Made by a program: the position numbers and the translations under genes | Source: Isosphaeraceae bacterium | GTDB taxonomy: Bacteria; Planctomycetota; Planctomycetia; Isosphaerales; Isosphaeraceae | Length of the DNA: 64,000 bases | Direction: 5' to 3' | NCBI GenBank assembly: GCA_965199885.1 | Contig: CBDATT010000002.1 | Location: 1-64,000 of the forward strand | The notes under the pieces: model-generated | What the model saw: the letters and a program-made list of their open reading frames with translations, nothing else | Told to the model about the DNA's origin: nothing | Databases searched by the model: none | Part shown: positions 1-50,377 of the stretch, one piece after another | Layout: the number at the start of each line of letters is the position of its first letter | Numbering within the stretch: the stretch's first letter is position 1

Positions 1-1330
1 GTAACAAATTTAAGGAGTTTTGGGGAATCGCGGCATTTGGGGGGAATGGCTTCAAGCCGTACGGTTGCGTCAAAGTTCCATCAGCTGCTCTAGGCAGAAA
101 GTTTACTGGATCAGTCCAACCACTATTCACTGGTGTTGTGATACCTGCCATGGTTTCTCTCCATGTTGGAAATCCCCACCAAGTTTGCTTAGCACTAGGG
201 GACACCAAATTATCACCTAAATCGAGTGCATTGTGGTTGTTTGAAATCCCGTAGTAAGTGTCATTGCCTGGATACAAGAAGTGATCCCATCCCAGACCGA
301 GACGATTAGGGTCAGGTGTAGAATACATGCCCGGATAAATGAACGGAAAGGCATAAATATCGTAAGAGCCGGGGTTTAACCTATTAGAGTTAGACGCTTC
401 ATTCATGAAAATATTGGGAGAATTAAAAGGATGGTTGCCAGCCCCATCTGTGTAAATCGTAGGATAATAGTCTGGAACACCATCGCCAATAATGTTTCCA
501 TTATTGTCAACATTATTGTCGTCAGGGGTATTATCAAAGTTATTGCGCGTTCCCTGGTTATCAGTAAAATCATTTGCAAAACGAGGACGAAATGCTCTAT
601 TCTCCCTGTTCGTCAAATCTTCGAGGTCATTTACTAATGGAATGGCGGACTTGGAGCCACCGGGCCTGCAAGATATATCGTTCATTCCTTGCCAGCTAAC
701 AATAGTGGAATTGCCAAAAGCCTGACTTTTAAAATAGTATTGGTACGTGTTTGGGCCAAACATCAAGGTTGAAAAGTCGCCTGCAACAGTGTTACCAATC
801 ACTATGGATTTCTGTCGTTCAGGTGAGACCAAGAATACTCTACGGTAAAGATTACCGTTCCGAAGAAAGTAGATGACTTCAGCCACTTGGCTAGTAATTG
901 AGGTTGGTTGGATGCTCTGATTCACAGAAGAGCCTTTGCTGCCTAACCATTGGCGTCCCGTGAAGAACTGACCATCCGGGGCGCGGGTGGTGAAGGCGAG
1001 GTAGTCGTCGGAGTCTTCCCCCTGGATGTCGGCGGGGGCGTTCTCGCCGTATTCGAAGTAGCCGCGCTTGTCGCGCGGGTCGTTCGGGGGCGTCATCTTG
1101 GCGGTCACGCCAGCCAGGTCGGACCGGATGATCGAGTCGATCTGGCGGAGGTTGACGTCGAGTTCCTGGATCGTCCGCGAAGCGCTCATGGCGCCGGTGG
1201 CGACCTGAAAGATCTGGACCAGGATCACCATCATCAGGATGACGAGGGCGACCACGACGAGCATTTCGACCAGAGTCACGCCCCGGCGGCGATCTTGAGG
1301 ACCGCTTGGGCGTCGGATCAGCGTCAGCAT
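1..1330 (-). CDS. prepilin-type N-terminal cleavage/methylation domain protein (large pseudopilin-like); C-terminal end lies beyond window start
   Basis: Minus-strand ATG at 1330-1328. My own translation gives MLTLIRRPSGPQDRRRG|VTLVEMLVVVALVILMMVILVQ, a class III prepilin signal with hydrophobic helix. The frame stays open to position 1 (443+ codons). It is absent from the ORF track only because no stop falls inside the window. It is the 5th of five tandem prepilin-type genes. Confidence 0.6.
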   Translation of the reverse strand, partial: MLTLIRRPSGPQDRRRGVTLVEMLVVVALVILMMVILVQIFQVATGAMSASRTIQELDVNLRQIDSIIRSDLAGVTAKMTPPNDPRDKRGYFEYGENAPADIQGEDSDDYLAFTTRAPDGQFFTGRQWLGSKGSSVNQSIQPTSITSQVAEVIYFLRNGNLYRRVFLVSPERQKSIVIGNTVAGDFSTLMFGPNTYQYYFKSQAFGNSTIVSWQGMNDISCRPGGSKSAIPLVNDLEDLTNRENRAFRPRFANDFTDNQGTRNNFDNTPDDNNVDNNGNIIGDGVPDYYPTIYTDGAGNHPFNSPNIFMNEASNSNRLNPGSYDIYAFPFIYPGMYSTPDPNRLGLGWDHFLYPGNDTYYGISNNHNALDLGDNLVSPSAKQTWWGFPTWRETMAGITTPVNSGWTDPVNFLPRAADGTLTQPYGLKPFPPNAAIPQNSLNLL

Positions 1331-1409
1331 ATCGACTCCTCCCCGGCGAGCCGGGTCATGACTGGGGACAGATGGGTCAGGCGAATGGGTGGTCGAGTTC
1401 ATCACGAGG

Positions 1410-2843
1410 TCAGTGAACCTCGAAGGTCCGGTTAAACACGTTGACCACGCTCGGCATAACCAGGGCGACGTTCAGGTGAAGCGGGTTGTTGCTGGCATCG
1501 ACCGCTGTTGCGGTCCGGACCCGCGAGTTCAGGATCACCACCATCGACCGATACCCCGAGGCACCCAGGACGAGGTCGGGGCCGGGGTCGGCGCGCTTGG
1601 CGACCTGGTACCAGTAATTCCGGACGAACGACGACTGCGTGGTGCCGACCCGGGTCCTGTAGCGCGAGACGACCCGCTCGTAGGTCGTATCGCAAATCCA
1701 GCCACCGACGCGGACCGGCGGGTCGGCCAGGGCGCTGTTCCAGCGCAGGAGGACGGCCCGGGCGTTCCCGCCGTAACCGTAAACCGCCTCGACGACCGTC
1801 TCGCCGGTCGGGGCGAACCCGAGCCCGTTGGGCAGGGGGTCGTAACCAAACGGGCGGCTATCGCAGACGACCACATCGCCGGTGAACTGGGCGCCGTTGC
1901 CGTTGGCGTCGATCTGCCGGCCGGTGAAGAACCAGCTAAAGCGATAATCCGCCTGTGGTCCCCCCGTGGAGAGGTCGGGCAGGAGCGGGCTTGACGAGGT
2001 CGCCTGCCGGAGAAGCAAGTTGGCAGGCAGGGCGGCCCCAACTGCCGAGGTCTTTGTCTCGGTGTCGCCGTAGACGATGTCGTCGATCGAGGTGAACACG
2101 TTCCCGGCCACATCGGCGGGCTGATACAGGAAGGTGGGCGGGTTGGCGCTCGGGTCGTCGTTGTGGTGCGTGAAGGCGAACTGCGGGGTCAGACCACCAC
2201 TATTCCAGGGGACGAAGTTGGTCAACCGCTGCAAGCCGTGGGCGCTGGCGATGTTGCCGTCGGGGTCCAGGTGGATGTACGGCGTCGTGGTCCCGAAGAT
2301 ACCCGACCCGAACCGGGCCTCGCCCAACATGTAAGTGGCGCTGCCACCCGTGACCAGGCCCGGCGGCACGATCAGCGTCGGGTCGTACGTCATCGTGCTG
2401 GTGGTCGAGTTGGGTGGGTTGGCGGGCAAGACGTGCGCCAGTTCACGCCAGAGCGGGTCGTAGCAGATCGGCAACCCGTTCGCCAGGCCGACATTGTTGG
2501 TCGGGATCAAGACGCTGCCCGACGCGATCGTGTTGACGTAGGTGCCATCGGGCAAGGCATCCTGCACGAACGGGTCGCGGGTGCCGTACCAGGTATTCAG
2601 GAACGACGGTTTGAAGAAGAGCGCCCGCGAGTCGATATCATCGGCGGCGTCCTCGTACGTCAGTCCAGCGCGACCCTGACGAGTCCCTTCGCGGAGGCGG
2701 AGCAACCCGAGCGGGAACAGGGTCGCCAGCGAGATCAACCCGACCCCCATGATCAGGATCGCGATCAGGATCTCGGTCAGGGTGATCCCGGACCGACGCG
2801 GGCGGCGTTGTCCCAGAGCGTAAGCAGTAGTGGCGGCGGTCAT
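1410..2843 (-). CDS. prepilin-type N-terminal cleavage/methylation domain protein (large pseudopilin-like, 477 aa)
   Basis: N-terminus MTAATTAYALGQRRPRRSG|ITLTEILIAILIMGVGL shows a basic leader, Gly at -1, Glu at +5 and a hydrophobic helix. It is Gly/Thr/Asn/Pro-rich. It overlaps the upstream gene by 4 nt (ATGA), consistent with operon coupling. Confidence 0.65.
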   Translation of the reverse strand: MTAATTAYALGQRRPRRSGITLTEILIAILIMGVGLISLATLFPLGLLRLREGTRQGRAGLTYEDAADDIDSRALFFKPSFLNTWYGTRDPFVQDALPDGTYVNTIASGSVLIPTNNVGLANGLPICYDPLWRELAHVLPANPPNSTTSTMTYDPTLIVPPGLVTGGSATYMLGEARFGSGIFGTTTPYIHLDPDGNIASAHGLQRLTNFVPWNSGGLTPQFAFTHHNDDPSANPPTFLYQPADVAGNVFTSIDDIVYGDTETKTSAVGAALPANLLLRQATSSSPLLPDLSTGGPQADYRFSWFFTGRQIDANGNGAQFTGDVVVCDSRPFGYDPLPNGLGFAPTGETVVEAVYGYGGNARAVLLRWNSALADPPVRVGGWICDTTYERVVSRYRTRVGTTQSSFVRNYWYQVAKRADPGPDLVLGASGYRSMVVILNSRVRTATAVDASNNPLHLNVALVMPSVVNVFNRTFEVH

Positions 2844-4378
2844 TGCGACTCCTTCGTGCCACTCTGGGCGTCGTAGTACGGGGCGCTGGTGTCGTAGGCG
2901 TCGAAGTTTTCGATCGAGTTGGAGACGATCTGCCCGGTCCGCGTGAACAGCGTCAAGAGCCGCCGTTCTCCCTTCAGGAACGTCGGGCCGGCATAGTTGG
3001 CGGCCCCCTGCGGCAGCGGCAGCAGGTACGTTTGCGGGTTCGATGTGTCGGTGTAATGCGGATTTACTTTTGGCTTGAGAAGGGTCGTCGTCCCGATCGC
3101 CTGCTCGCCCCAGAGGGGGGCCGAGAGGTCTTCGCGCTCGGTGATCCAGAAGTGGAGGAACGGCAAGTTGGCGACCGGCGAGTTGGTGTAATAGCCACCG
3201 CCACCCGACCCGGTCCCCTGTGTGACCACGCGCCCCGACTGGTCGATCAAAACATCGACATTTCCCGAGAACGGATCGACCGGTAACCGCGACCGTTCCG
3301 GCAGCATGATCGAGTAACCCGGCTGGCTCGATACTGCCGCGTTCCAGGTCGTCAGGTCGATAACGGCCCCCGCCGGCAGCGTGGTCTCAGCGGAGTTCGG
3401 CGAGACGACCGGGCGACGGATGATCGTGTAGTTCGCGTTCGCTGGCGGCGATGACGAGTAGATCCCTTCAAACACTTCTTTTTCGTACTCGTCACCGATG
3501 AGCATCTCGTGGGGACCATCAATGACCCCATCTTGGTCATCGTCGATCCCGTTGTGCCCAGGGTCGATATAGCCGTCGCCGTCGTTGTCGATCCCGTCGC
3601 ACCCTTCGTCGATCCAGCCGTCGCCGTCGTCGTCGATCCCGTTCATGAGGTTGAGGTATTCAAGCACCGGCGTGTAAATCGGCGTTGCGGGATTTGGCGA
3701 GACAGGTACGTCGCCGAAATAAGCCAGAGAGGTCTCGCTGGCCAGACTCCCATAGGAAATGTACCTTTCGGGGTTGGCTGGTATTGCCCCCGTCGTCGCC
3801 GTTGAGGTGTGCATCGGCCCAACGATGGTATAGAACGGCCCCGAATCATTGAAGCGGATCTTGTCGCCCTGACGGATGTTATATTGCCACCCGGTGGGAG
3901 CGTTTTGAATGTATGCAGTGCCGCTGCTGGTCACTGTCGAGGTAACCTCTGCAGCCCCGACCCGCAGGTATTGCACAGAAGCCCCGGTCGAGTCGATCAG
4001 GTTAGAGGCCACCGGCACAAACGTACCACCGTTGACAACCCCCTCATGGTAATCGGGTGCCGGCTCGATCGGGACGAACCGGTTCGAGGCCAATGGCGAG
4101 CCATCCTGGGCATTGTTGAGAAAGTTGAAGGTCGGATCAGGCAGGAGCCGGATACCGCGGGGGGCGTTGGCGCGGATGGCGGCGTCGCGGGCACCGGAGA
4201 GGGCGGCTTGCAGGACGCGGGCGGCCTCGCTGACCCGCCGCTCGTTGAGCGCGGGCAGGATGACCGGTAGCGCCACGGCGCTGATCAGGCCGATGATGGC
4301 GACCACCACCAGCAGTTCGATCAAGGTGAAGCCCCGGGGCCGGAGCCGGGGGGCGATGGGATGCGTCGTCGCGGGCAT
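2840..4378 (-). CDS. prepilin-type N-terminal cleavage/methylation domain protein with acidic DxDxDG calcium-binding-like repeats (512 aa)
   Basis: N-terminus MPATTHPIAPRLRPRG|[15 protein letters not shown]. An internal block GIDDDGDGWIDEGCDGIDNDGDGYIDPGHNGIDDDQDGVIDG is present. Its start overlaps the stop of the upstream gene by 1 nt (TGATG). Confidence 0.65.
   Translation of the reverse strand: MPATTHPIAPRLRPRGFTLIELLVVVAIIGLISAVALPVILPALNERRVSEAARVLQAALSGARDAAIRANAPRGIRLLPDPTFNFLNNAQDGSPLASNRFVPIEPAPDYHEGVVNGGTFVPVASNLIDSTGASVQYLRVGAAEVTSTVTSSGTAYIQNAPTGWQYNIRQGDKIRFNDSGPFYTIVGPMHTSTATTGAIPANPERYISYGSLASETSLAYFGDVPVSPNPATPIYTPVLEYLNLMNGIDDDGDGWIDEGCDGIDNDGDGYIDPGHNGIDDDQDGVIDGPHEMLIGDEYEKEVFEGIYSSSPPANANYTIIRRPVVSPNSAETTLPAGAVIDLTTWNAAVSSQPGYSIMLPERSRLPVDPFSGNVDVLIDQSGRVVTQGTGSGGGGYYTNSPVANLPFLHFWITEREDLSAPLWGEQAIGTTTLLKPKVNPHYTDTSNPQTYLLPLPQGAANYAGPTFLKGERRLLTLFTRTGQIVSNSIENFDAYDTSAPYYDAQSGTKESQ
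3515..3640 (-). repeat. degenerate repeats of gtcgatccc / gtcgccgtcg encoding D-rich DxDxDG units in prepilin protein 3
   Basis: Repeated gtcgatcccgtt...gccgtcgccgtcgtt units on the plus strand encode GIDDDGDGWIDEGCDGIDNDGDGYIDPGHNGIDDDQDGVIDG. Confidence 0.5.
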
Positions 4379-6132
4379 CAGCGAACTCCCGTGCTGGGGG
4401 CCGAGGTGTTGTGGTTGGTGATATCGTCCAGCCCGGCATCGGTCTGGAGGTAGACGGTAGTGCCACTACTGGCGTCGGGGATTTCGAAGAAATGGCCCGA
4501 GGTCGCGGCATTCAGGCGGGCAATCGGGTTGGATTGCGACGCCTGGTTCTCGATGAGGATCAGGGCCTGCGTGTTGGCCTGAATAGTGGTCGCCGGGGCG
4601 ATCGGGAATGTGAAATTGGACCCCGACGAATCCGCCGTCAGCGCTGAATAATCCTTCGAAAACTGGGCGACCCCAGGTTCTTTATCGGGACCTGATGACA
4701 GGATCAGGAACTTCGAGAAGTAGGCCCGGCGATCGTACACGCCCGTCCGGTCCCATCCGGTTCCCGCTGGCGGTGTCGGGCTGGCGACGGGGCTGGTGAC
4801 CGGATCGACCAGGATGCCGAAGTAGTGCATGAATCCGAGTGCGCCTTTGCTCTGGCCGGGTAAGCTGCCATCCGGAGCGGTGAATGTTGGGCCGTAAGGA
4901 TGCGCAGTCGGTGCAGTTGTGAACCCGGGGTTGGCCAGCGCGGTCCACCAGCCGGGCGAAACCAGATACTGGTTCGGGTCGAGCGGGTCGAGTTGGCGGG
5001 TCTCGCTGTAGCCGTTGTACGGGGCGCTCCCCTTCTGCGTGTCGGACGAGCCGGGGACCGCACCGTAGTAGATCGGCAAGCGGAAGAACTGGAGCGGTTC
5101 GCCCCAGGCATCGACAAACTCGGGGAGGCCATCGCCGTCGGTATCGGCCACTTCGCGGGCGGTGAACTCGTCGCGGTTGAAGACGCTGCCGAGCGGGCCG
5201 ACCCCTTCGACCAGGACGGCATAAAGCATCTCGGCCCGTGCTGTCTTGTGTGTGTGCAGGGCCAACCGAGCATTGACGGCGCTCAGAAAGCTGGCTCCTG
5301 CCGGGCTCCCGTTGACCAGAACCTCGCTTAGTTCGTCGATAAAGCCGTTGGCGTTGTTGTCGCCGCCATCGAACGCCTGCGTGACGTTGACGGTTGTGCC
5401 CGAGTTTGCCGTGATCAGGTCGCTTGCCGCCGCCGCGTACAGGTTTTTGTAGACACCACCCGCCGCCGCGAACGAGGCGCCAAACATCCCTGTCACCGAG
5501 AGTTGGTTGTTATCGTTCGGATAAGGGTTGGTGATATTCGTTGAGGAGTCGCCATATCCTTCAAACAAGCCGCCCGCAGTCGTGTAGGGCGCTGTCGGCG
5601 AAGCGATGTTCGGATCACGGACAAAACCAATCCCCAACGGTACGACATAATTAGACAGACTCGTCCCACCAACAGGAAAGGCTGATGCAGCGAAGTTGAG
5701 CGGGTAAAACGCGCTGAAGGCGGCCCCATCAGTCGTGGCCGAGTTGAGATAAAAGACGTCGGGCAGTTCCGACCGGAGGTAGTCATACTGGGCGATCACC
5801 TGCGCCCGCCGCTCATCCGAGCCACCCGACGACACTGAACCGACCGGAATATAGTTACCACTGGCCAGGAAGTTGATCGCCGCCAGGTAGCGATGCGTCT
5901 GGTTGACCGGTGCCGTCGCGTTGAGCAGCGCATCGAGCCGGTCGGCGACGCCGGTTTCGAGTTTGGTGATGATTGTCTGCGTGGCGCGTTCCTCAGCACG
6001 ACGGACACCGTCGGCGGCGGCAACCAGGATCAACGAGATGATCAGCCCGATGATCGCGATCACCACCAGGAGTTCGATCAACGTGAAACCCGATGGGCTT
6101 CGCTTGTGCTCGTCGCGGGGGTATCGTCGCAT
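4378..6132 (-). CDS. prepilin-type N-terminal cleavage/methylation domain protein (about 584 aa)
   Basis: The ORF track begins at 6348. The prepilin motif MRRYPRDEHKRSPSG|[15 protein letters not shown] begins at the internal Met (codon 6132-6130), which has an AAGGAA Shine-Dalgarno-like sequence upstream. The upstream 216 nt of the ORF coincide with a conserved terminator-like hairpin, so the start was moved. Confidence 0.6.
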   Translation of the reverse strand: MRRYPRDEHKRSPSGFTLIELLVVIAIIGLIISLILVAAADGVRRAEERATQTIITKLETGVADRLDALLNATAPVNQTHRYLAAINFLASGNYIPVGSVSSGGSDERRAQVIAQYDYLRSELPDVFYLNSATTDGAAFSAFYPLNFAASAFPVGGTSLSNYVVPLGIGFVRDPNIASPTAPYTTAGGLFEGYGDSSTNITNPYPNDNNQLSVTGMFGASFAAAGGVYKNLYAAAASDLITANSGTTVNVTQAFDGGDNNANGFIDELSEVLVNGSPAGASFLSAVNARLALHTHKTARAEMLYAVLVEGVGPLGSVFNRDEFTAREVADTDGDGLPEFVDAWGEPLQFFRLPIYYGAVPGSSDTQKGSAPYNGYSETRQLDPLDPNQYLVSPGWWTALANPGFTTAPTAHPYGPTFTAPDGSLPGQSKGALGFMHYFGILVDPVTSPVASPTPPAGTGWDRTGVYDRRAYFSKFLILSSGPDKEPGVAQFSKDYSALTADSSGSNFTFPIAPATTIQANTQALILIENQASQSNPIARLNAATSGHFFEIPDASSGTTVYLQTDAGLDDITNHNTSAPSTGVR

Positions 6133-6283
6133 GGCGTCCGCCGTTCCTTTGTTCGCTGCCCGTCGCTGCGCTACTGACTCACTCACCAATGAACCATTCC
6201 GCCCGATCCGGGGCGGATCGACTCCAAGCCGACCCGCCCCACCCTGCGATCCGAACCGTTTCCTACGGAACGAGTCAGTGCCG

Positions 6284-6336
6284 AAAAAGAGGGACAGGCA
6301 CCGCTCCTGCGTCGCTTGAGCCAGTCCCCTTTTTCT
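6284..6336. terminator. conserved bidirectional terminator-like hairpin (copy 1): A-tract, 9-bp GC stem, conserved 21-nt loop, T-tract
   Basis: AAAAAGAGGGACAGGC-ACCGCTCCTGCGTCGCTTGAG-CCAGTCCCCTTTTTC lies immediately 3' of the minus-strand prepilin gene (stop at 6364) and 5' of the next gene (start at 6132). Confidence 0.5.
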
Positions 6337-6363
6337 CGACCCCTCCACGCGCCAGGAAATCGC

Positions 6364-7545
6364 TTAGTCGAGCCGACCACCCGAGAAGTTGGTGATGTTG
6401 TCGCTCTCACGCTGGCGAATACCCGTCTGGTCATCACCGTTGATATTGCCGGGGTCGGTTGCCACCGGCAGCATCGGCAACTTGCCGTTGCCTCCCAGGC
6501 TATTTTGCACATAAGTCCCACCCAGGCCGTAGTACCGATCCTGCCCGGCGGAAAAGAGCTGGAACGAGTTCGGATTCAGCCACGAGACCGTCCCCGATGC
6601 CGCCGGCCCCGAGGTGTAGGGGTTCGGCGAGGGGGAAATATCCAGGGTGGACGCCGTGTTGGTCCCCGACAGATACACCGGGAAGTTGACCAGGAAGCCG
6701 CGAGCCACCGGCGTGCTGCCGTCTTCCTCGAACTCGTAGTCGATCGCCGTCGCCGAGTTGTGGCCGAGCCCATTGATGTCGTTCGGGTCGTACGAGTTCG
6801 TGCCGTACGAGGCGAAGTAGGCATAAGCGCGGCGGTTGCCCGGCGTGATGTCGAGCGGGTCGAGGTACGACGGGATGTGGTCGCCGTCAAGGTCCACCAA
6901 TCGGCCGGCGACGAACTCGTAGTTGGCCGCTGTCCGGTTGGTGGCGAGGGTGCTGTTGATGAACGGATTCGTCGGGAGCTTGCTGAACCCACTCACGCCG
7001 GTGACGACGCCGTTGTTCAGGATCGGAATCCCGCCGAGGAAGAAGGTCAGGCATTCCGACCCATTCAAAAGGGTGGCATGCCCCAGGGCACCGTCATTGA
7101 TCCCGTTGCCGTTGAAGTCGAAGAAACCAGGGCTCGTCGGCGGGACCAGAAAGTTGACCCGCGGCCAGAACGACCGGAGGATGGCCAGCGACCGGTTAGC
7201 GAGGTCCTTGTCGGTGATGTCGGAATCGTTCGACCCGGCGCCGGCGATTGCGGTGCCTGCTGCTGAGGCGAAGAAGGCGGTAAACCCCGCCTCGGGCAAC
7301 AAGACCCGGCTCGGCGGGAAGGCGCCATAGGTCGTCTTGAAGCTCGCCAGCGCGGTCGCCATGTTGTTCAACTCGGCGGCGACCTGCGCTTCGCGGGCTC
7401 GCCGGAACGCACCCGCAATCGCGGGGAGCAAGAGCGCCAGCAGGATGGCGATGATCAGGATCACAACCAGAATTTCCACCAGCGTGAAGCCAAGCCGGCG
7501 GCTGCCAGAGCCAGGGCGAAGGTCGGGGCGGTCGGGGCGGTCCAT
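6364..7545 (-). CDS. prepilin-type N-terminal cleavage/methylation domain protein (about 394 aa)
   Basis: The prepilin motif MDRPDRPDLRPGSGSRRLG|FTLVEILVVILIIAIL starts at the internal Met (7545-7543). The upstream part of the ORF is a Pro-rich low-complexity artefact. The start coordinate is uncertain and could extend as far as 7749. Confidence 0.55.
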   Translation of the reverse strand: MDRPDRPDLRPGSGSRRLGFTLVEILVVILIIAILLALLLPAIAGAFRRAREAQVAAELNNMATALASFKTTYGAFPPSRVLLPEAGFTAFFASAAGTAIAGAGSNDSDITDKDLANRSLAILRSFWPRVNFLVPPTSPGFFDFNGNGINDGALGHATLLNGSECLTFFLGGIPILNNGVVTGVSGFSKLPTNPFINSTLATNRTAANYEFVAGRLVDLDGDHIPSYLDPLDITPGNRRAYAYFASYGTNSYDPNDINGLGHNSATAIDYEFEEDGSTPVARGFLVNFPVYLSGTNTASTLDISPSPNPYTSGPAASGTVSWLNPNSFQLFSAGQDRYYGLGGTYVQNSLGGNGKLPMLPVATDPGNINGDDQTGIRQRESDNITNFSGGRLD

Positions 7546-7770
7546 CGGTCGAAGCTCCGCGGAAGGTGGTTCAGGAGGAGAAACAGGTTTACCCAGGACA
7601 ACGAAACCAGTGTGTTTTGGGGACGACCCGGGCCAGACCCGCCGGGCGGCACCGGGGGCCGCTCCGCTCCGCGCCGGCAGCCGGATCGCGGCGGAAGGTG
7701 AATCAACCGGGTCGATTTCAGGGTGACCAGGCAACGAAGGGAGGATCAACCGCGCGGAGCGAGGACGTCC

Positions 7771-7860: not shown

Positions 7861-9111
7861 TCAGCCCGACAGCTTGCTGATCAGCGAGATCAGCGGCAGG
7901 AACAACGCGATGACGATGAACCCGATGATCCCACCCAGGACCACGATCATGATCGGTTCAAGCAAGCTCACCAGCGACTCGACCAGCGTTTCGACTTCTT
8001 CGTCATAGTTGTCGGCAATCTTGTTGAGCATCGTGTCGAGGTCGCCCGTTTCCTCACCGACGTCGATCATGTTGACCACGATGTCGTCGACGATCCGCGC
8101 TTCGCGGAGCGGCTGCGCGATCGTTTCCCCTTCGCGGATACTCTCGTAGATCCGGGTAAACGCCCGCTCGAACACCATGTTCCCCGCCGTGTCGCGGACG
8201 ATGTTCAGCGACTCCAAAATCGGCACGCCCGACTGCACCAGCGTCCCCAGCGTCCGCGTCGTCCGGGCCACCGTCGACTTCTCGACGATCTGCCCCATGA
8301 CCGGAATCAAGAGCAAGATCCGGTCAAGGATGTACGCTCCCGTCTTGTTCCGATAGATCAATTTAATCATGATCACAAACAAGACCGGTGCCAGGATGAC
8401 AAGATAAAACTTGTCGACCACGACGTGGCTGGCCACGATCAGGAATTTGGTCATCCCCGGCAGGTCGACGCCGAAGTCTTTGAAGATCGCCTCGAACTTC
8501 GGAATGATGAAGTACAGGATGAACCCGACGATCAAGCACGCGACCGAGATGACGACGATCGGGTAAACCATCGCCGACTTGATCCGCCGCTTCAGCGTTT
8601 GCGACTTTTCCTTGAAGTCCGCCAGGCGCTGCAAGATCGCTTCCAGGGCACCGCCCGCCTCACCCGCCTTGATCATGTTGCAATAGAGCTTGTCGAACGC
8701 CTTGGGGTGCTTGGCGAAGGCGTCGGAGAGCGTGGCTCCCGACTCGATATCTTCAACCACGTCTTCCAAAGCGTTCTTCAAGACCCCCGGCTTCGACTGG
8801 CCGTGGAGGATCTTCAGGCTCCGCAGGATCGGCAGACCGGCGTCTTGCAGCGTCGAAAGCTGACGGGTGAACGTGCAAAGCTGCTTCGTCGAGATCTTGC
8901 CGATCGTGAACGACTTCTTCTTCCCCTTGCGCCCGCCCTTCTTGGCGCCGGCGGGTCCCTTTTTCTTCGCCTTGGCCCGCTCGGAGATCTTCGTGACGAA
9001 GAACCCCTTCTGGCGGATCAGTTGCTGCGCTTCTTCCTGGGTGCTGGCGTCGATGGTGTCCTTCACCTCGCGCCCGGTATTATCCATCGCCTCATATTGA
9101 AACGTCGGCAT
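7861..9111 (-). CDS. type II secretion system protein F / type IV pilus platform protein PilC family
   Basis: 416 aa with two GspF-type repeats and three TM segments. It has an unusual Lys-rich insertion, AKAKKKGPAGAKKGGRKGKKK, in the N-terminal cytoplasmic domain. Confidence 0.85.
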   Translation of the reverse strand: MPTFQYEAMDNTGREVKDTIDASTQEEAQQLIRQKGFFVTKISERAKAKKKGPAGAKKGGRKGKKKSFTIGKISTKQLCTFTRQLSTLQDAGLPILRSLKILHGQSKPGVLKNALEDVVEDIESGATLSDAFAKHPKAFDKLYCNMIKAGEAGGALEAILQRLADFKEKSQTLKRRIKSAMVYPIVVISVACLIVGFILYFIIPKFEAIFKDFGVDLPGMTKFLIVASHVVVDKFYLVILAPVLFVIMIKLIYRNKTGAYILDRILLLIPVMGQIVEKSTVARTTRTLGTLVQSGVPILESLNIVRDTAGNMVFERAFTRIYESIREGETIAQPLREARIVDDIVVNMIDVGEETGDLDTMLNKIADNYDEEVETLVESLVSLLEPIMIVVLGGIIGFIVIALFLPLISLISKLSG

Positions 9112-9211
9112 CCTCGGGACTCCTTCGCTCGGTCTGGGTCGCGGTGGTCGGTGACAGTGTCAGCAGGAAGTGATTCAATGATTGAAACGAATCAGGCCAG
9201 GCCGGGGCGGC

Positions 9212-10930
9212 TCACTCGTCGTCGAGCATGGTTTCGCGGATGATCTCTTCGATCGACGTTTGCCCGGTGTGGATCGCTTCGAGCCCCGACTCGCGGAGGG
9301 TTCGCATCCCGTACTTCCGGCACTCGTCGCGGAAAGCGTCGAGCGACGCTTCGGAGACGACCATCTCGCGGAGGTGTTCGTTCATGACCAGGAGTTCATA
9401 GATCCCCATCCGCCCCTTGTACCCGGTGTTGTTGCACTTCTCGCAACCCTTGCCGTAGTAGAACTTTTTCGACGCGGCGACCTCGGGGGTCATCCCCAGC
9501 TCCATCGCCACTTCGGGACTCGGGGTGAACTCGGTCCGGCAGTTGGTGCAGATCCGCCGGACGAGCCGTTGCGCGAGCACCGCCTCGATCGTCGCGGTGA
9601 TCAAGAACGTCGGGATACCCATGTCACGGAGCCGGGTGATCGCCGACGGCGCGTCGTTGGTGTGCAGCGTCGTGAAGACGATGTGCCCGGTCAACGACGC
9701 CTGAATCGCGATCTCGGCGGTTTCAAGGTCGCGGGTCTCACCGACGAGGATCTTGTCGGGGTCTTGCCGCAGGATCGCCCGCAAGCAGGCGGCGAACGTC
9801 ACCCCGATCTCGCCGTTGATCGGCACCTGGATCAGGCCGTCGATGTCGTACTCGACCGGCTCCTCGGTGGTGATGATCTTTTCTTCCGGCGTGTTCAACT
9901 CGTTGAGCGTGGCGTAGAGCGTCGTCGTCTTGCCCGACGACGTCGGCCCGGTCACCAGGATGATCCCGTTCGGCTTGTGGATGATCTCGCGCCAGACCAC
10001 CAGCGTATCCTCGGGCATGCCGATCTTGCGGATGTCGAGGTTGACCACGGTCCGGTCGAGGATTCGCAGCACGACGCTCTCACCGAACAGGGTCGGCAGG
10101 GTCGAAACGCGGATATCGACCTGGTTACCGCCGATCGCCAGCTCGATCCGGCCGTCCTGCGGCAGCCGACGTTCGGCGATGTCGAGGTTCGACATGACCT
10201 TGATGCGCGACGAGATCGCGGGGGCCAGGTGGCGGGGCGGCGGCACGAGTTCATAGAGGATGCCGTCCACCCGGTACCGCATCTTGTACTCGTCTTCAAA
10301 CGGCTCGAAGTGGATGTCCGACGCCTTGTCCTTGATGGCGAGCAGGAGCACCATGTTCAGGAGCTTGCGAACGGGCGCGGCCTCGGCCATTTCCTCGATC
10401 GCTTCGAGGTCGATCGTGTTTTCGTTCCGGTTCTGGAACTGCGACAGCCCCTTGTCGTTTTCGATCTGCTTGACGACGTCCTGAATCGACTCCTGCTTGC
10501 CGGCATAGAGGCGCGTGATCGCCGCCATCACGTCGGATTCCGCCGCGATCACCCCTTTGACGTCGACGCCGAGGAACGACTTGATGCTGTCGAGCGTCTG
10601 CGGGTCGCGGGGGTCGGCCATCGCGACGGTGACGCTCTTGTCCTTCTTGTGCTGCGAGACCGGGACGATCTTGAACGTCGTCGCCATCGTCTCGTTGACC
10701 AGCTCGGTCAACTCGGCGGGCACCGCCATCTCACCGAGCCGAACCACCTTCATGCCGAACTGTTCGCCGAGCGCCTTGAGCACCTGATCCTCGGTGACCA
10801 CGCCGAGGCGCACCGCGACCTTGCCCAGCAGCTCGTTATCCGACCGCTTCTGCTCTTCGAGCACCTTCCAGAGGGTATCGTCGCTGATGTACCCCATGTC
10901 GACCAGGATCGTGCCGATTCGCCGAGCCAT
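9212..10930 (-). CDS. GspE/PilB-family secretion ATPase with N-terminal T2SSE_N domain
   Basis: 572 aa. Walker A box GPTSSGKTTTLYA, Asp box, His box, and a tetracysteine motif CTNC...CEKC are present. The N-terminal region resembles the GspE N-domain. Confidence 0.85.
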   Translation of the reverse strand: MARRIGTILVDMGYISDDTLWKVLEEQKRSDNELLGKVAVRLGVVTEDQVLKALGEQFGMKVVRLGEMAVPAELTELVNETMATTFKIVPVSQHKKDKSVTVAMADPRDPQTLDSIKSFLGVDVKGVIAAESDVMAAITRLYAGKQESIQDVVKQIENDKGLSQFQNRNENTIDLEAIEEMAEAAPVRKLLNMVLLLAIKDKASDIHFEPFEDEYKMRYRVDGILYELVPPPRHLAPAISSRIKVMSNLDIAERRLPQDGRIELAIGGNQVDIRVSTLPTLFGESVVLRILDRTVVNLDIRKIGMPEDTLVVWREIIHKPNGIILVTGPTSSGKTTTLYATLNELNTPEEKIITTEEPVEYDIDGLIQVPINGEIGVTFAACLRAILRQDPDKILVGETRDLETAEIAIQASLTGHIVFTTLHTNDAPSAITRLRDMGIPTFLITATIEAVLAQRLVRRICTNCRTEFTPSPEVAMELGMTPEVAASKKFYYGKGCEKCNNTGYKGRMGIYELLVMNEHLREMVVSEASLDAFRDECRKYGMRTLRESGLEAIHTGQTSIEEIIRETMLDDE

Positions 10931-11183
10931 GCATCCACCCTTCTTCCGCGCGGGCCAATCGTGTCCGGACTTTTGCTTGCCGCGATCAGGTCAGATTGAG
11001 TTGAATTCGAGCAGCCCGGACCAGAACGGCCCAGGCGAGGACTAGAATGAAGTGGCGAGTCCGGGGAAGACTCGCCGCGAGGCAAACCTGGATTGCTGTT
11101 GGACTTTGGACGCCTGGCGACCCCAAAAAGTTTCCGGCGTGTTGCTGAATTGCATCAACCGGCCGTCACCGAGCCGCCGAGTT

Positions 11184-12293
11184 TCAATCGTCCTCTTCCT
11201 CCGCCTCGTCGTCGTCCATGATCCCCTTTTTGGCGTTGTCGATGCGTCCCCGCAACTCTTCCGGTTTCCGCGACTTGTACATCGCTTCCTCTTCCGTGAT
11301 CAGCCCCTGCTTCCACAGGTTATACAGGCTGTCATCGAGGAGGATCATCCCGTGTTTGCGCCCGGTCTGAATCGACGAGTCGATCCGGTACGTCTTGTTT
11401 TCGCGGATCAGGTTCGAGATGGCGGGGGTGACGACGAGCATCTCGTACGCGGCGACCAGCCCCTTGGGGATGCGGGGCACAAGCGCCTGCGCGAGCACCC
11501 CGAGGATGGCGACGGAAAGCTGCGTGCGGATCTGGTCCTGCTGTTCCTTCGGGAACACGTCGATGATCCGGTTGACCGTTCCTTCAGCCGAGTTCGTGTG
11601 CAGCGTCCCGAAGACGATGTGCCCGGTCTCGGCGGCGGTGACGGCGGCCTGAATCGTCGCGAGGTCACGCATTTCGCCGACGAGGATGATGTCGGGGTCC
11701 ATCCGGAGGGCACGCCGAATCGCCTCGGGGAAGTCGGGAACGTCGATCCCGATCTCGCGCTGGTTGATCAGCGACTTCTTGTGCTTGTGGTAGTACTCGA
11801 TCGGGTCTTCGATCGTGATGATGTGCCGGTCCATGTTGTCGTTGATCCAGTTGATCATCGACGCCAGGGATGTCGTCTTGCCCGACCCCGTCGGCCCCGT
11901 CACGAGGATCAAACCGCGCGGCCGTTGAATCAACTGCTCCATGACGGCCGGCAACCCGAGTTGCTGGAACGTCAGGAATTCGTTCGGCACCCGTCGGAGG
12001 ACCAGGCCGATATTGCCGCGCTGCTTGAAGATGGCAACGCGGAACCGGGCGGCATCACCGAAGGCGAACCCAAAGTCGCACCCGCCGACTTCCTGCAACT
12101 CCTGCTGGCAGCGTTCGGGGGTGATCGACTTCATCAGGGCCGAGGTGTCCGACGACTCAAGCACCTTTGTATTGAGCGGGACCATGTGCCCGCCCAGCCG
12201 GAGCATCGGCTTTGAGCCGACGGTCAGGTGGAGGTCGCTGGCCTTTTGGGTCACGACCGTTTGCAACAACTTGTCGATCAGCAGCGTTCCCAT
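11184..12293 (-). CDS. pilT: twitching motility / pilus retraction ATPase PilT family
   Basis: 369 aa with no N-terminal GspE domain. Walker A box GPTGSGKTTSLASMIN and the PilT-type AIRRALRMDPDIILVGEMRD and His box are present. It has an acidic C-terminal tail DDDEAEEEDD. Confidence 0.85.
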   Translation of the reverse strand: MGTLLIDKLLQTVVTQKASDLHLTVGSKPMLRLGGHMVPLNTKVLESSDTSALMKSITPERCQQELQEVGGCDFGFAFGDAARFRVAIFKQRGNIGLVLRRVPNEFLTFQQLGLPAVMEQLIQRPRGLILVTGPTGSGKTTSLASMINWINDNMDRHIITIEDPIEYYHKHKKSLINQREIGIDVPDFPEAIRRALRMDPDIILVGEMRDLATIQAAVTAAETGHIVFGTLHTNSAEGTVNRIIDVFPKEQQDQIRTQLSVAILGVLAQALVPRIPKGLVAAYEMLVVTPAISNLIRENKTYRIDSSIQTGRKHGMILLDDSLYNLWKQGLITEEEAMYKSRKPEELRGRIDNAKKGIMDDDEAEEEDD

Positions 12294-12632
12294 GAGCGAG
12301 TCGAACCTTTCGCGGAGACTCCGCCAACATCAACCCCACCAGCGCGAGTCGGGGGGTTGACTTTGTCCTGTCGACTAGATGTCCACCGAAAAGGCACCAC
12401 TTTCCGATCGGAAGTGGCGGACCGAGAGAACGATCGGTCCACACCTGATTATTTCGGTGGACAAGGGGAGGATCAAGCACGCCCCCCGAGCGAATTTCGT
12501 CGTAAGCGGCGACGACGGCTCGAATCTCAGGGCAGATCCGAGCCGTCGCGGGGGTCTTGTGGGACGACCCAAACCGGGATCATCCCGAGCAATCCAATGA
12601 GTAGAGACAGTTGGTATTGCGTGCGGTCCGAA

Positions 12633-14366
12633 TCATGTGCCGGTTTCGGACATCGACTCGTGGTGGGTGATCCGGAGGATCTCGTCGATCGTCGTCAGCC
12701 CCTTGAGAGCCTTGATGATCCCGTCCTCGAACAACGTGTGCATCCCCTGTTTCCGAGCGGCTTTACGGATGACGTTGGTCGGTTCCCCCTTGAACGTCAT
12801 GTCGCGGATGGTGCTGGTCATCACCATCAACTCATGGATACCCATCCGGCCCCGGTAGCCCGTCTTGTTGCAGTTCGAGCACCCCTTGCCCTTCATGAAG
12901 TTCGCCTTCTTGGCGATCTCGGGACGGATGCCGATCGACTTCAAAACGTGCGCGGCGGGCTCGTACCGAACCTTGCACTTCGGGCAGATTTTCCGGACCA
13001 ACCGCTGCGCCATGATCCCCATAACCGAGCTGGCGACGAGGAACGGTTGCACGCCGATATCGACCAGTCTTGTTACAGCACTGGGCGCATCGTTCGTGTG
13101 CAGTGTACTGAAAACCAAGTGTCCTGTCAGGCTGGCCTGGATCGCCGTGTTGGCCGTCTCCTCGTCGCGGATTTCCCCGACCAGGAGGATGTTCGGATTT
13201 TGCCGGAGCATGGCCCGGATGATCCGCGCGAACGTCATGCCGATCTTGGCCTTGACCTCGCACTGGTTGACGCCGGGGAGGTAGTACTCGACCGGGTCCT
13301 CGGCGGTGATGATCTTGACGTCGGGGCGGTTCAACTCGTTGAGCGCGGCGTACAGGGTGGTCGTCTTGCCCGACCCCGTCGGCCCGGTCACGAGCAAGAT
13401 CCCGTTCGGCCGTTTGATCAGAGCCTGGAACCGCTTCCAGTTGTCGTCGGAGAATCCCATGTCGCGTAGACTGACCTTGATGTTATCGCGGTCCAGGATT
13501 CGCATGACGACCGACTGGCCATGGTTGGTCGGCAGGATCGAGACGCGGAGGTCGATGTCCTTGCCGGCGACGTGGATCTTGATCCGGCCGTCCTGCGGGC
13601 GCCGTTTTTCGGCAATGTCGATCGACCCCATGATCTTGATACGACTGACCATCGCCCCGAGGAGCCGGCGCGGGGCCGAGTCGCGCTCGACGCAAACGCC
13701 GTCGATCCGGTAGCGAATTCGGACCCGGTCGCCGAACGGTTCGATGTGGATGTCGGAGGCACGGGTGACGACCGCTTCCTGAATGATCAGGTGGACCAAC
13801 CGGATGACCGGCGCGTCGCCTTCTTCGAGCGTGTTTGCCGACGACCCGCTCTTGCCGGCCCCTGGACCTTCGTCGGAGAAGTCGATCGCGGTGTCGGTAA
13901 ATTCCGAGATCATCGAGTCGATCGACTCGGATTCCTGCGACTTGCCGCCATAATACTTGTTGATCGCTTCGAGGATCGCTTCCTTTGACGCCAGCGCCAC
14001 GTCGATCTCGCGGTTCAGGACGAACCGGAGTTTGTCGACCGTCTCGAAGTCGTTCGGGTTGGCCATGATGACCCGGATCATCCCGTTGACCGACGAGAGC
14101 GGCATCACGATGTTTTCGCGCGCGAGCGACTCAGGGACGAGTTCGAGCACCGACGCCGGGATGTCGATATCACGGAGCGCGATGAAATCCATGCTGAACT
14201 GCTCAGCCTTGGCCTTCATCACATCGTCGGTATCAACGTAACCGAGTTTCGCCAGCGCATCTTCCAGCGGCATGTTGCCCATCCGCTGGGCTTCCTTGAG
14301 CTGGTCGGGTCCGATCACCCCGCGCTTGACGAGGATATCGCTCCACTCACGAGCTTGCTTGGCCAT
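12633..14366 (-). CDS. second GspE/PilB-family secretion ATPase (paralogue of the 9212-10930 gene)
   Basis: Walker A box GPTGSGKTTTLYAA and a tetracysteine motif CPKC...CSNC. The start was moved to the Met at 14366, which has GGAGGA 6 nt upstream. Together with the other ATPases it flanks pilT. Confidence 0.8.
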   Translation of the reverse strand: MAKQAREWSDILVKRGVIGPDQLKEAQRMGNMPLEDALAKLGYVDTDDVMKAKAEQFSMDFIALRDIDIPASVLELVPESLARENIVMPLSSVNGMIRVIMANPNDFETVDKLRFVLNREIDVALASKEAILEAINKYYGGKSQESESIDSMISEFTDTAIDFSDEGPGAGKSGSSANTLEEGDAPVIRLVHLIIQEAVVTRASDIHIEPFGDRVRIRYRIDGVCVERDSAPRRLLGAMVSRIKIMGSIDIAEKRRPQDGRIKIHVAGKDIDLRVSILPTNHGQSVVMRILDRDNIKVSLRDMGFSDDNWKRFQALIKRPNGILLVTGPTGSGKTTTLYAALNELNRPDVKIITAEDPVEYYLPGVNQCEVKAKIGMTFARIIRAMLRQNPNILLVGEIRDEETANTAIQASLTGHLVFSTLHTNDAPSAVTRLVDIGVQPFLVASSVMGIMAQRLVRKICPKCKVRYEPAAHVLKSIGIRPEIAKKANFMKGKGCSNCNKTGYRGRMGIHELMVMTSTIRDMTFKGEPTNVIRKAARKQGMHTLFEDGIIKALKGLTTIDEILRITHHESMSETGT

Positions 14367-15245
14367 TGAGGTCCTCCGGAAGAAGGCGCGGAAGGTGATG
14401 GGACAGGATGCGAAAGCCAATCAGATTGGATCAAAACGTCGGCGCGGCGCGGCGACGGGACACATCGCGAACGGAAGCGCCCCCTGCATCATTCTAGCTT
14501 GTCGAGACGATGCGTGAATCCAGGGGTCGGCAAATGGCGGGGATTCACCCTGTCGGCGGTGATCGACTCGCAGGTCGCCTCAACGGCGCAACAGGATGCC
14601 AACCGGCCGGATCAACGCGGAATTGCGCGGCCGATCTTTCCCCAGGCTACCACGCCCACCCCTGACCCACAAGCGGCGCAGGCAAAAACCAGTCTCTATC
14701 AGAGATCTTAGATTTGTTGTGTGGGTGCAACCCACCGTGAATTTGACCTGCTCCCACCAGGCACCTCGAATCAGATTCTGTGGTCTTTCAATGACCACGC
14801 CCACGATCAATGGGATCCCACTTTGTAAAGTCTGGATCTGGCAAAGAATTGACGCTCTGCCATCCGAAACTTCCCCCCTTCGGAGGCGGAGATGAGTACC
14901 AGCGCAAGAAAGGCGACCTCGCCTCGTCCGATGTGGCCTTACGAACCCGATTAGATTGTCTTAAATAGGGCGATGTGGACAGATTATTGAAAATTCGGAA
15001 ATTATTTTGCCAAAGTAAACTGAAATGTCTCGCGATCTCCGATACTATTTCTGTTCAAACGTGCCGACGGTTGCGTCCCGGTCGGGTGGGTGTCAGTTTT
15101 CCGGGGCCAGATTCTGCCTTTTTTGGTCGGTTCCGGTCCACCGCACACGGGGGGCGGCACCCCCTCGACCAGGACGCAACTGGGGCGCATGGGAGCCTCG
15201 CATCGTCGAATTTCACACCCAGGATCGCCGAGGGAGTCTGCATCC

Positions 15246-20675: not shown

Positions 20676-20728
20676 CAAGAAAGGGGACAGACACCGCTCC
20701 TCCGTCGCTTGAGTCAGTCCCCTTTTGC
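20676..20728. terminator. conserved bidirectional terminator-like hairpin (copy 2), near-identical to 6284-6336
   Basis: GAAAGGGGACAGAC-ACCGCTCCTCCGTCGCTTGAG-TCAGTCCCCTTTTG lies immediately 3' of ppdK (stop at 20798) and 5' of the VOC gene. The loop differs by 1 nt from copy 1. Confidence 0.5.
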
Positions 20729-49582: not shown

Positions 49583-50377
49583 ATGCATCATCTCCGTCGC
49601 GCGTTCACCCTGATCGAACTGCTTGTGGTCATCGCCATCATCGCCGTCCTGGTCGGCCTGCTCTTGCCTGCCGTCCAGGGGGCGCGTGAGGCGGCCCGGC
49701 GGATGGACTGCCAGAGCCACCTGCACCAGATCGGGATTGCCACCCTGCAATACTTCGACGACTGGAACGGCCAGTTTTTCCTCCATCACCCGTTCAACGC
49801 CGACAGCGTCCGGGACGTCGACAACGCCGAGTCGTTCGCCGAGATCTACTGGGAAGACAAGATCATGCCCTACATCAACCCGACCTTCGCCAACGAGGCG
49901 ATCGCCAGGGGGGGCACGCAGATCGCCGACGAGAAGATCTTTCGGTGCATGTCGGATACCTCGACCGTGGCGCCCTACATGGACCCCGACACCGGCCTCG
50001 TCGACGGGATCTCGAACCGGACGAGTTACCTGATGAACTCGCTTTTAAGTCACAAGACGGTCCGGTTTGGCCGCTACACGTTCGTTCGGTTCCAGCAGGA
50101 GATGGGGACGTCGAACTTCGTCGCCTTCAACGAGCGCGACGGTGCCGTGATCAACGCCAACATCAACGACCCCGTCGCCGCCACCGACCCCCGGCAGGAC
50201 GACTACGACCTCTGGCTCGGCACCAGGGTTCTCGATACCTGGATTCCCTGGAAACGCCACGGCGCCGCAAACGTCCTCTACCTCGACGGCCACGCCAGAT
50301 CCGTAACCTCGGCCGACGGCTACCTCGGCATGTTCCCCGGCGGCCAGTTGCTCATCAACCCCACGTTCGCTCCCTGA
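49583..50377 (+). CDS. DUF1559 domain protein (prepilin-type N-terminus plus H-X9-DG C-terminal motif; Planctomycete-expanded family)
   Basis: N-terminus [40 protein letters not shown]. The C-terminus [17 protein letters not shown] is an H-Xn-DG motif. Confidence 0.7.

Follow-up and report, generated by a model that had tools for sequence, protein, structure and literature searches.

The locus and the identity of g5

We analysed a 64,000-nt stretch of contig CBDATT010000002.1 from an Isosphaeraceae bacterium (positions 1 to 64,000; the whole stretch is referred to here as the window), and focused on the gene at its left edge, where base composition changes abruptly within a single open reading frame (ORF). 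Five consecutive ORFs on the minus strand occupy nt 1-7749 and all match the Pfam family PF07963. The gene in question, g5, is the last of the five; its start codon is at nt 1330 and it runs off the window at nt 1, with 443 residues visible. An earlier note on this DNA, made from the sequence alone, had called g5 the fifth prepilin-type gene, and the five ORFs from nt 1330 to 7749 with their PF07963 matches bear this out.

The PF07963 match in g5 spans residues 14-37 (nt 1220..1291, minus strand; E = 1e-4, 22.1 bits against a cut-off of 21.2) and contains the prepilin N-terminal cleavage/methylation motif G|VTLVE. The N-terminal sequence, RRRG|VTLVEMLVVVALVILMM, joins this motif to a hydrophobic helix, as in class III signals. 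We found 719 homologues of g5, the best of which cover 100% of the 443 visible residues at no more than 64% identity and are 600-750 aa long; those that carry names are PulJ/GspJ- or PulG-type pseudopilins of Isosphaeraceae, for example from Singulisphaera and Tundrisphaera. The order of five pseudopilins, T2SSF and T2SSE is shared with related loci L048, L055, L057 and L059, as expected of a GspJ/PulJ gene cluster. From these similarities, g5 is predicted to encode a GspJ-like minor pseudopilin of ~680 residues, in a family that appears confined to Isosphaeraceae and Isosphaeraceae-like planctomycetes. A model of the homologue P0004 has the predicted GspJ-type fold, in which a long alpha-1 helix packs on beta sheets, and ~450 residues of the g5 family, of unassigned fold, exceed the size of GspJ and lie outside this GspJ-like core. 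A profile search against PDB sequences gave a match limited to the pilin helix, with nothing beyond the N-terminal helix.

Two features of the visible protein lie in its AT-rich part. A conserved block of 24 residues, ITSQVAEVIYFLRNGNLYRRVFLV (nt 827..898, minus strand), has the same protein sequence as in relatives but is written in AT-rich codons, and corresponds to beta strands 146-170 in the P0004 model. An Asn/Asp-rich stretch, NNFDNTPDDNNVDNNGNIIGDGVPDYYP (nt 461..544, minus strand), is an Asn-expanded version of a DxDxDG-like motif, DGIPDDNNGDGVPDYYP, that is conserved across the family. The Asn/Asp-rich peptide quoted in the earlier note is thus present, but as a family motif in expanded form. 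By sequence, g5 has a single DxDxDG-type motif (461-544), and g3 has putative calcium-binding-like DxDxDG repeats in tandem (DDDGDGWIDEGCDGIDNDGDGYIDPGHNGIDDDQDGVIDG, nt 3536-3625).

Composition changes abruptly within g5

The GC content of the first 900 nt is 0.434, whereas the remaining 900-nt windows of the 64 kb have a mean of 0.640 (sd 0.033, range 0.549 to ~0.71). At a resolution of 200 nt, GC stays within 0.38-0.48 up to nt 900 and within 0.62-0.67 beyond it. A maximum-likelihood change point in the first 3 kb fell at nt 951 (two segments versus one, 2*delta lnL = 124.7). GC content at third codon positions (GC3) is 0.87 in codons 1-126 (the 5' module, nt 953..1330, minus strand) and 0.42 in codons 127-443 (nt 2..952, minus strand), the latter being orthologous to residues ~128-440 of ~680-aa family members; at first codon positions GC falls from 0.66 to 0.44 across the same boundary. 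Given the protein it encodes and the codon usage of the genome, the AT-rich part would be expected to have a GC3 of 0.83 rather than the observed 0.42 (z = -19.3). The drop in g5 is therefore mainly synonymous and not an effect of amino acids alone. The earlier note had reported the abrupt mid-gene switch and had described the first ~130 codons as genome-typical; the in-frame compositional cliff is confirmed on both counts.

The AT-rich stretch is coding. Its frame is free of stops over 317 codons, which has a chance probability of ~2e-8, and the remaining five frames contain 10-36 stops. Other plausible genes of the window have GC3 values mostly of ~0.7-0.9. Further patches below 50% GC measure at most ~430 nt and lie mainly between long ORFs, so that, for long stretches, the claim that the composition is unique within 64 kb is correct. 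The AT-rich part of g5 is unmatched in composition by any other gene of the window and by anything in 1.07 Mb of related loci, and no 900-nt stretch below 0.49 GC occurs in the 56 related loci that make up this 1.07 Mb.

We located the breakpoint by codon-usage likelihood, with the genome and the AT-rich part as the two reference usages. The best position for the switch is directly after codon 126 (nt 953); the 2-lnL support interval spans codons 122-128 (nt 947..967, minus strand), which encode the peptide FFTGRQW, and an estimate from GC3 alone places the break after codon 118. The step in GC3 is at most 10 codons wide and lies inside one open frame, and up to ~26 nt (nt 951-976) fit both codon usages. 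FFTGRQW hardly varies within the family, and an indel-rich loop of variable length comes next. The junction thus sits in the family's most conserved motif, directly ahead of this loop, at a place where a homology-guided crossover would be expected. In the P0004 model the GspJ-like core has strand 123-127 on one side of the junction and strands 146-170 on the other; the junction is thus predicted to cut the fold rather than to separate domains.

The segment carries an AT-biased history

The codon usage of the AT-rich segment departs widely from that of the genome. AGA and AGG together make up 47% of Arg codons (2% in the genome), TTA and TTG 67% of Leu codons (19% in the genome), and TCG is used for none of 25 Ser residues (49% in the genome). 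The segment favours ATT, TTT, AAT, GAT, TTA/TTG, AGA/CGT and TCT/TCC. Uniform usage, as in random back-translation, was ruled out (chi-square p = 0.0066). The GC-ending codons that remain also deviate from the genome's preference, with six TCC against no TCG and 12 GGC against two GGG.

The amino-acid composition has moved in the same direction. Compared with 120 homologues, the segment is rich in FYMINK residues (0.315, z = +3.2) and poor in GARP residues (0.268, z = -2.7), and it is the most AT-shifted among 215 family members. In conserved alignment columns it shows 31 differences from the consensus, an ordinary number, among which GARP residues were lost 10 times and never gained; the net shift towards AT-rich codons in these columns is +15, against 1.6 +/- 4.2 in 40 homologues. 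At fourfold-degenerate sites the base in the window is independent of the family consensus throughout the segment, whereas in the 5' part it tracks the consensus. In one example tally, consensus-G sites showed A at 2, C at 3, G at 3 and T at 6 positions. This independence indicates that the segment is long-diverged and not recently mutated, and the same pattern rules out simple synonymous recoding. The codon usage and amino-acid composition of the segment reflect long evolution under AT pressure, not recent hypermutation. The earlier note was therefore right to call the gene chimeric in a compositional sense: the segment has a history of AT pressure of its own, recorded in its codons, its FYMINK/GARP shift and its saturated fourfold sites.

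The segment is an orthologous part of one family

We compared the protein encoded by the AT-rich segment with its relatives. The alignment with the family is continuous across the junction. When the AT-rich part alone was searched with HMMER against 1.84 billion representative proteins, 205 relatives were found; in those of full length the matched part starts near residue 115-190 of proteins of ~650-750 aa. On this evidence the AT-rich part does not move as a module from one architecture to another, and is the collinear, orthologous continuation of one narrow family. The proposal that a C-terminal module or adhesin domain had been acquired is accordingly not supported, as the part is collinear and the junction lies inside the GspJ-like core. 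Nor does g5 show the suggested likeness to C-terminal exchange in polymorphic toxins: the homologues are collinear, the top ones cover 88-100% of the query, and the central domain occurs in one architecture only.

The protein divergence of the AT-rich part is ordinary for the family. Natural high-GC pairs with 88-89% identity in the 5' part have 59-68% identity in the central part; for the window and P0001 the figures are 89% and 62%. A group-identity bootstrap with 500 replicates placed the 5' part nearest to group B (439/500) and the central part nearest to group A (493/500). The flanking genes g3 and g4 are likewise nearest to group-A loci.

GC3 dips recur in relatives

A partial depression of GC3 was found in the same segment of other loci. 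In L057, a Logan contig encoding P0005, which is among the closest relatives of the central part of g5, codons 123-438 have a GC3 of 0.61 against 0.91 outside (2*delta lnL ~91). The left edge of this dip, APE|GQTFSGRQWL, is at the same place as in the window; its right edge is at about window-equivalent codon 442, which coincides with the window edge, and GC3 is high afterwards. The neighbouring genes of L057 have normal composition. Corrected for amino-acid content using each locus's own codon usage, the deficit of the central segment reaches z = -19.3 in the window, -10.7 in L057, -7.0 in L050, -5.2 in L053 and -4.5 in L020, and in the remaining 40-odd loci it is -3.8 or weaker. No such depletion of GC3 affects the 5' and 3' parts of these genes. 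In L050, L020 and L058 the weaker dips stop at window-equivalent codons ~431-437, and that in L053 ends past the aligned part. Central GC3 is thus graded across lineages (0.42, 0.61, 0.72-0.74, 0.80).

The window and L057 have no excess of AT-ending sites in common (odds ratio 1.0), although saturation limits the power of this comparison. Because these sites are unshared, the dips do not appear, within that limit, to be one inherited state, and a single import ancestral to the window and L057 followed by partial amelioration is unsupported. That L057 has kept G at consensus-G sites does not prove a native origin, since amino-acid-specific codon preference in a GC-rich host gives the same pattern.

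In the family at large, 46 of 49 homologue ORFs have a slightly lower GC3 in the central than in the 5' part (median difference ~0.07), and the central region contains 8.3% Asn. Orthologues encode the central domain at GC3 values of 0.57-0.96, mostly at or above 0.7. The earlier note had looked to orthologues to distinguish a recent acquisition from an old, inherited low-GC domain. Most in fact carry the domain at normal high GC, and in a few the GC3 of this segment is partly lowered; this pattern fits segment-wise replacement or drift over evolutionary time, not programmed switching.

The 5' module stands in contrast to this. It shares 83-89% identity with its closest homologues, and its codon identity with five relatives is 71-84% against 58-65% expected by chance, whereas codon identity in the central part does not rise above chance. 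In nearly all loci the 5' module (nt 953-1330 and the equivalents in ~48 related loci) also has a higher GC3 than the locus would predict. This synonymous conservation could come from recombinational homogenisation or from constraint at the nucleotide level. Natural high-GC pairs are also near chance codon identity outside the 5' module, and a comparison of residual codons for ancestry is thus powerless to distinguish drift from import. On these results, g5 combines a conserved, apparently recombining 5' module with a central unit, at ~codons 123-440, that has a separate history.

Gene neighbourhood

Upstream of g5 on the minus strand lie g4 (1410..2843, GC3 0.87), g3 (2840..4378, with its DxDxDG repeats), g2 (4378..6348) and g1 (6364..7749), the fourth to first prepilin-type genes, whose GC3 ranges over 0.74-0.87. 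They are preceded by genes for a T2SSF/GspF-type platform protein (7861..9111, minus strand), which is 96-99% identical to its relatives, and a T2SSE/GspE-type ATPase (9212..10930, minus strand). The listed start of g2 is probably over-extended, as it reaches across a terminator-like hairpin at 6284-6333. This hairpin is one copy of a 50-nt repeat, the other being at 20677-20726 (88% identical), in which a GC-rich hairpin stands between an A run and a T run, as in a bidirectional terminator. The first copy falls between g1 and g2, and a terminator after g1 would suit g1 as an abundant major subunit.

Three paralogous ATPases of the GspE/PilB/PilT type stand in a row at 9200-14420 (repeat families D1, D3, D5 and D8). 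This suggests extension and retraction motors, and hence a type IV pilus-like system rather than a plain type II secretion system (T2SS). GspF and GspE have 94-99% protein identity to their nearest relatives (L048, L050, L055), against 50-65% for all five pilin-like genes; by this measure the entire pseudopilin block evolves fast. A further coding motif for a prepilin-type N-terminus was seen at 49599-49676, far from the cluster, and forms a 40-nt inverted repeat with the N-terminus of g3 (90% complementary, repeat I1).

In relatives, a very large, conserved protein with no Pfam match is encoded 3' of g5 (L048 12157-14004; L049 3669-11420; L057 8147-12076; L059 8208-14040); it reaches more than 2,500 aa and is 60-68% identical between loci. 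In the present genome the corresponding place falls directly beyond the window. Some relatives have tandem pairs of g5 paralogues, as at L056 3102-7029 and for P0012 and P0013 on one 83.5-kb JGI contig. In L056, GC3 is lowered (~0.66) over most of the first paralogue, P0039 (~codons 79-658), but not in the second, P0021.

Origin of the composition cliff

Taking import and drift in place together, we consider it likely that g5 is a real mosaic gene. Our tentative reading, which we hold to be plausible but somewhat short of an even chance, is that a low-GC allele of the central segment was imported. The first ~122 codons would form a conserved module, kept similar by recombination between lineages even at synonymous positions, and the segment at ~codons 123-440 would evolve as a separate unit. 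The central allele would have evolved for long under AT-biased pressure in a gene pool of lower GC, such as an unsampled relative or a mobile element, and recombination would then have joined it to the resident 5' module. The crossover may have taken place within the sequence coding for FFTGRQW, and because this motif is conserved the hybrid product would be in frame and in register. We infer both the import of the AT-rich allele and its joining inside the cell. Several observations weigh against this account. Two alleles that are 45 GC3 points apart share little nucleotide identity, and homologous recombination between them would be difficult. The protein distances of the segment match the expectation for vertical descent (62% here, 59-68% in natural pairs), and its identity across loci follows that of the resident neighbours g1-g4. 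The low-GC donor that the earlier note had invoked was not found: nothing more than ~55-61% identical to the segment was present in any collection searched (5.8 billion protein clusters, 1.84 billion representatives, 185,579 GTDB species genomes, JGI metagenomes, viral contigs, and plasmids and phages at both DNA and protein level), and no family member came from a genome region below ~56% GC. No tRNA was found in the window, and no repeat or integrase marks the near border; the far border lies beyond nt 1.

The segment may instead have drifted to AT in place, which is possible but, on balance, not what we expect. A resident, vertically inherited allele that had become too divergent to recombine would escape GC-biased gene conversion (gBGC) and decay to the AT mutational equilibrium, while the conserved 5' module would still recombine and stay GC-rich; the cliff would then be the end of the recombining tract. 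The agreement of the segment's protein distances and nearest relatives with the flanking resident genes, and the lack of a donor in the collections searched, fit this account. So do the graded dips confined to the same segment in relatives, the AT-ending sites unshared with L057, as independent equilibria would give, and the 5' module, conserved synonymously and with raised GC3 in nearly all loci. The edge moreover coincides with the shift from conserved to indel-rich sequence, and a gBGC hypothesis has been published for bacteria (PMC4450053). However, g1-g4 are equally divergent between lineages and yet keep a GC3 of 0.74-0.87, and most family members have no dip. The GC-ending codons that remain in the segment ignore the genome's preference, and the decay would therefore have to be complete. 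The mechanism is one that we infer, and we know of no case in which a within-gene GC3 drop of 45 points arose in place. A related idea, that the cliff is a recombination footprint, we regard as rather unlikely: the 5' module would be continually homogenised between lineages and driven to very high GC3 by gBGC, and old, non-recombining central alleles would decay to varying degrees (GC3 0.74, 0.61, 0.42).

Leaving aside import and drift, the cliff might be an assembly chimera, in which the first ~950 nt came from the orthologue of a low-GC organism in the same sample and were joined through a short k-mer shared in the motif. We consider this improbable. The join lies in register at the most conserved motif, the likeliest site for a shared k-mer, and up to ~26 nt fit both usages; the anomaly reaches the window edge, which could be a contig tip, and neither a natural donor nor a close relative is known for the segment. 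However, a chimera requires the same unsampled low-GC carrier of the family as import does, and joins from random chimeric reads would not preserve frame and register. The dip in L057 is internal, with the same left edge and normal flanks on both sides in one contig, and cannot be produced by a single false join; milder dips occur in other, independent assemblies, and per-base quality in the window appears high, with long intact ORFs throughout. Programmed variation, in which dedicated machinery would swap the central or 3' part from silent cassettes or invertible segments outside the window on the models of pilE/pilS and the R64 PilV shufflon, is very unlikely, even though g5 is a minor pilin-like subunit whose switch comes directly after a conserved module, as in those systems. 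Tandem g5 paralogues exist in some relatives, and the position for shufflon segments, 3' of g5, is beyond the window. Within the 64 kb, however, the central part is single-copy, with no second or partial copy in tblastn searches using homologue central parts; the junction 30-mer has no second match when up to 3 mismatches are allowed; and there is no direct or inverted repeat at the junction, nor any inverted repeat involving nt 1-1330. No recombinase was noticed beside g5 in the window, the loci not having been screened for one. A cassette store would also share the composition of the genome, which leaves the GC3 of 0.42 and the saturated synonymous sites unexplained. The cassette swapping that the earlier note had compared to pilin antigenic variation thus finds no silent cassette, junction repeat or second copy in the 64 kb. 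It is scarcely credible that a resident high-GC sequence was recently hypermutated at this one place, for example by cytosine deamination. The bulk shift at third positions is chiefly C->T and G->A, and C>T is the commonest synonymous difference from homologues. However, at consensus-G fourfold sites T is at least as frequent as A (5-6 versus 2-5), with the base independent of the consensus, and a transition-only process was rejected on this pattern. The usage of AGA/AGG and TCT/TCC needs transversions, the amino-acid composition has shifted as well, and the frame is intact. The remaining explanation, an ancient vertical domain with low GC merely from an Asn/Asp/Tyr-rich composition, could draw on the somewhat Asn-rich central region of the family and on the slightly lower central GC3 of 46 of the 49 homologue ORFs, but it is refuted by the gap between expected and observed GC3 and by the orthologues that encode the domain at GC3 values of 0.57-0.96.

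Implications of a mosaic g5

If the hybrid is genuine, then in a tip-type subunit of a planctomycete filament, of secretion or pilus-like type, the central segment evolves separately from the conserved ends. The same pattern is seen in flagellins and pilins that face phage or predator pressure. Either an unsampled low-GC gene pool would then exchange DNA with GC-rich Isosphaeraceae, or a segment that ceases to recombine would be able to fall from a GC3 of ~0.9 to ~0.4 in place. The latter bears on the long-standing question of what keeps bacterial genomes GC-rich. Should the recombination-footprint account be true, recombination and not codon selection would hold GC3 near 0.9 in a GC-rich bacterium, and g5 would be a natural within-gene experiment from which the mutational equilibrium could be read directly, at a GC3 of no more than ~0.42. 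The graded series formed by the window, L057 and L050/L058 makes this question of GC maintenance testable with population data. If the cliff is instead an assembly chimera, it is a warning that in-register joins at conserved motifs can mimic gene mosaics.

Comparison with known systems

Like GspJ/PulJ/XcpW and PilW-like proteins, g5 has a prepilin cleavage/methylation motif with Glu5, and it is the last of five pilin-like genes next to GspE- and GspF-type genes. At ~680 aa it is, however, about three times larger than GspJ (~200 aa), and its family is restricted to Isosphaeraceae-like planctomycetes. Chimeric metagenome contigs resemble g5 in showing an abrupt change of composition at a conserved motif near a sequence end, but the join in g5 is in frame and in register, and it is mirrored in L057, an independent contig, by an internal dip whose left edge is the same.

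Neisseria pilE/pilS and the R64 PilV shufflon share with g5 a downstream part that differs in history from a constant 5' part. The silent copies, junction repeats and inverted repeats of these systems are missing at g5 in the 64 kb, where no recombinase was noticed either, and such systems do not produce the shift in composition that g5 has. To our knowledge, a sharp intragenic cliff to a GC3 of 0.42 has never been attributed to gBGC. The higher GC3 of the 5' module, the part of g5 with signs of recombination, is nevertheless in the direction described for gBGC in bacteria (Lassalle et al. 2015, PMC4450053), where the published effect is a genome-wide correlation of modest size.

The variable regions of flagellins and pilins have atypical GC. 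In mosaic filament and surface genes, such as flagellin with its central region or the type IV pilin and minor-pilin alleles of the 'pilin island' of P. aeruginosa, a conserved 5' module stands beside a segment with its own history and atypical composition, as in g5, and in g5 the boundary likewise recurs in several lineages. Horizontal acquisition of pilin cassettes and alternative sets of minor pilins have been discussed in P. aeruginosa (PMC11841053), and a recombination unit covering only the 3' region of an ORF has been described (PMC2568036). The g5 gene differs from such mosaics in that its step is extreme (45 GC3 points) and falls within the pilin-like core fold, not at the border of a surface domain; no donor or alternative allele class was sampled, and the protein divergence of the segment is not unusual. 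Among known phenomena, g5 is nonetheless nearest to filament genes of mosaic type, in which conserved ends enclose a replaceable variable region.

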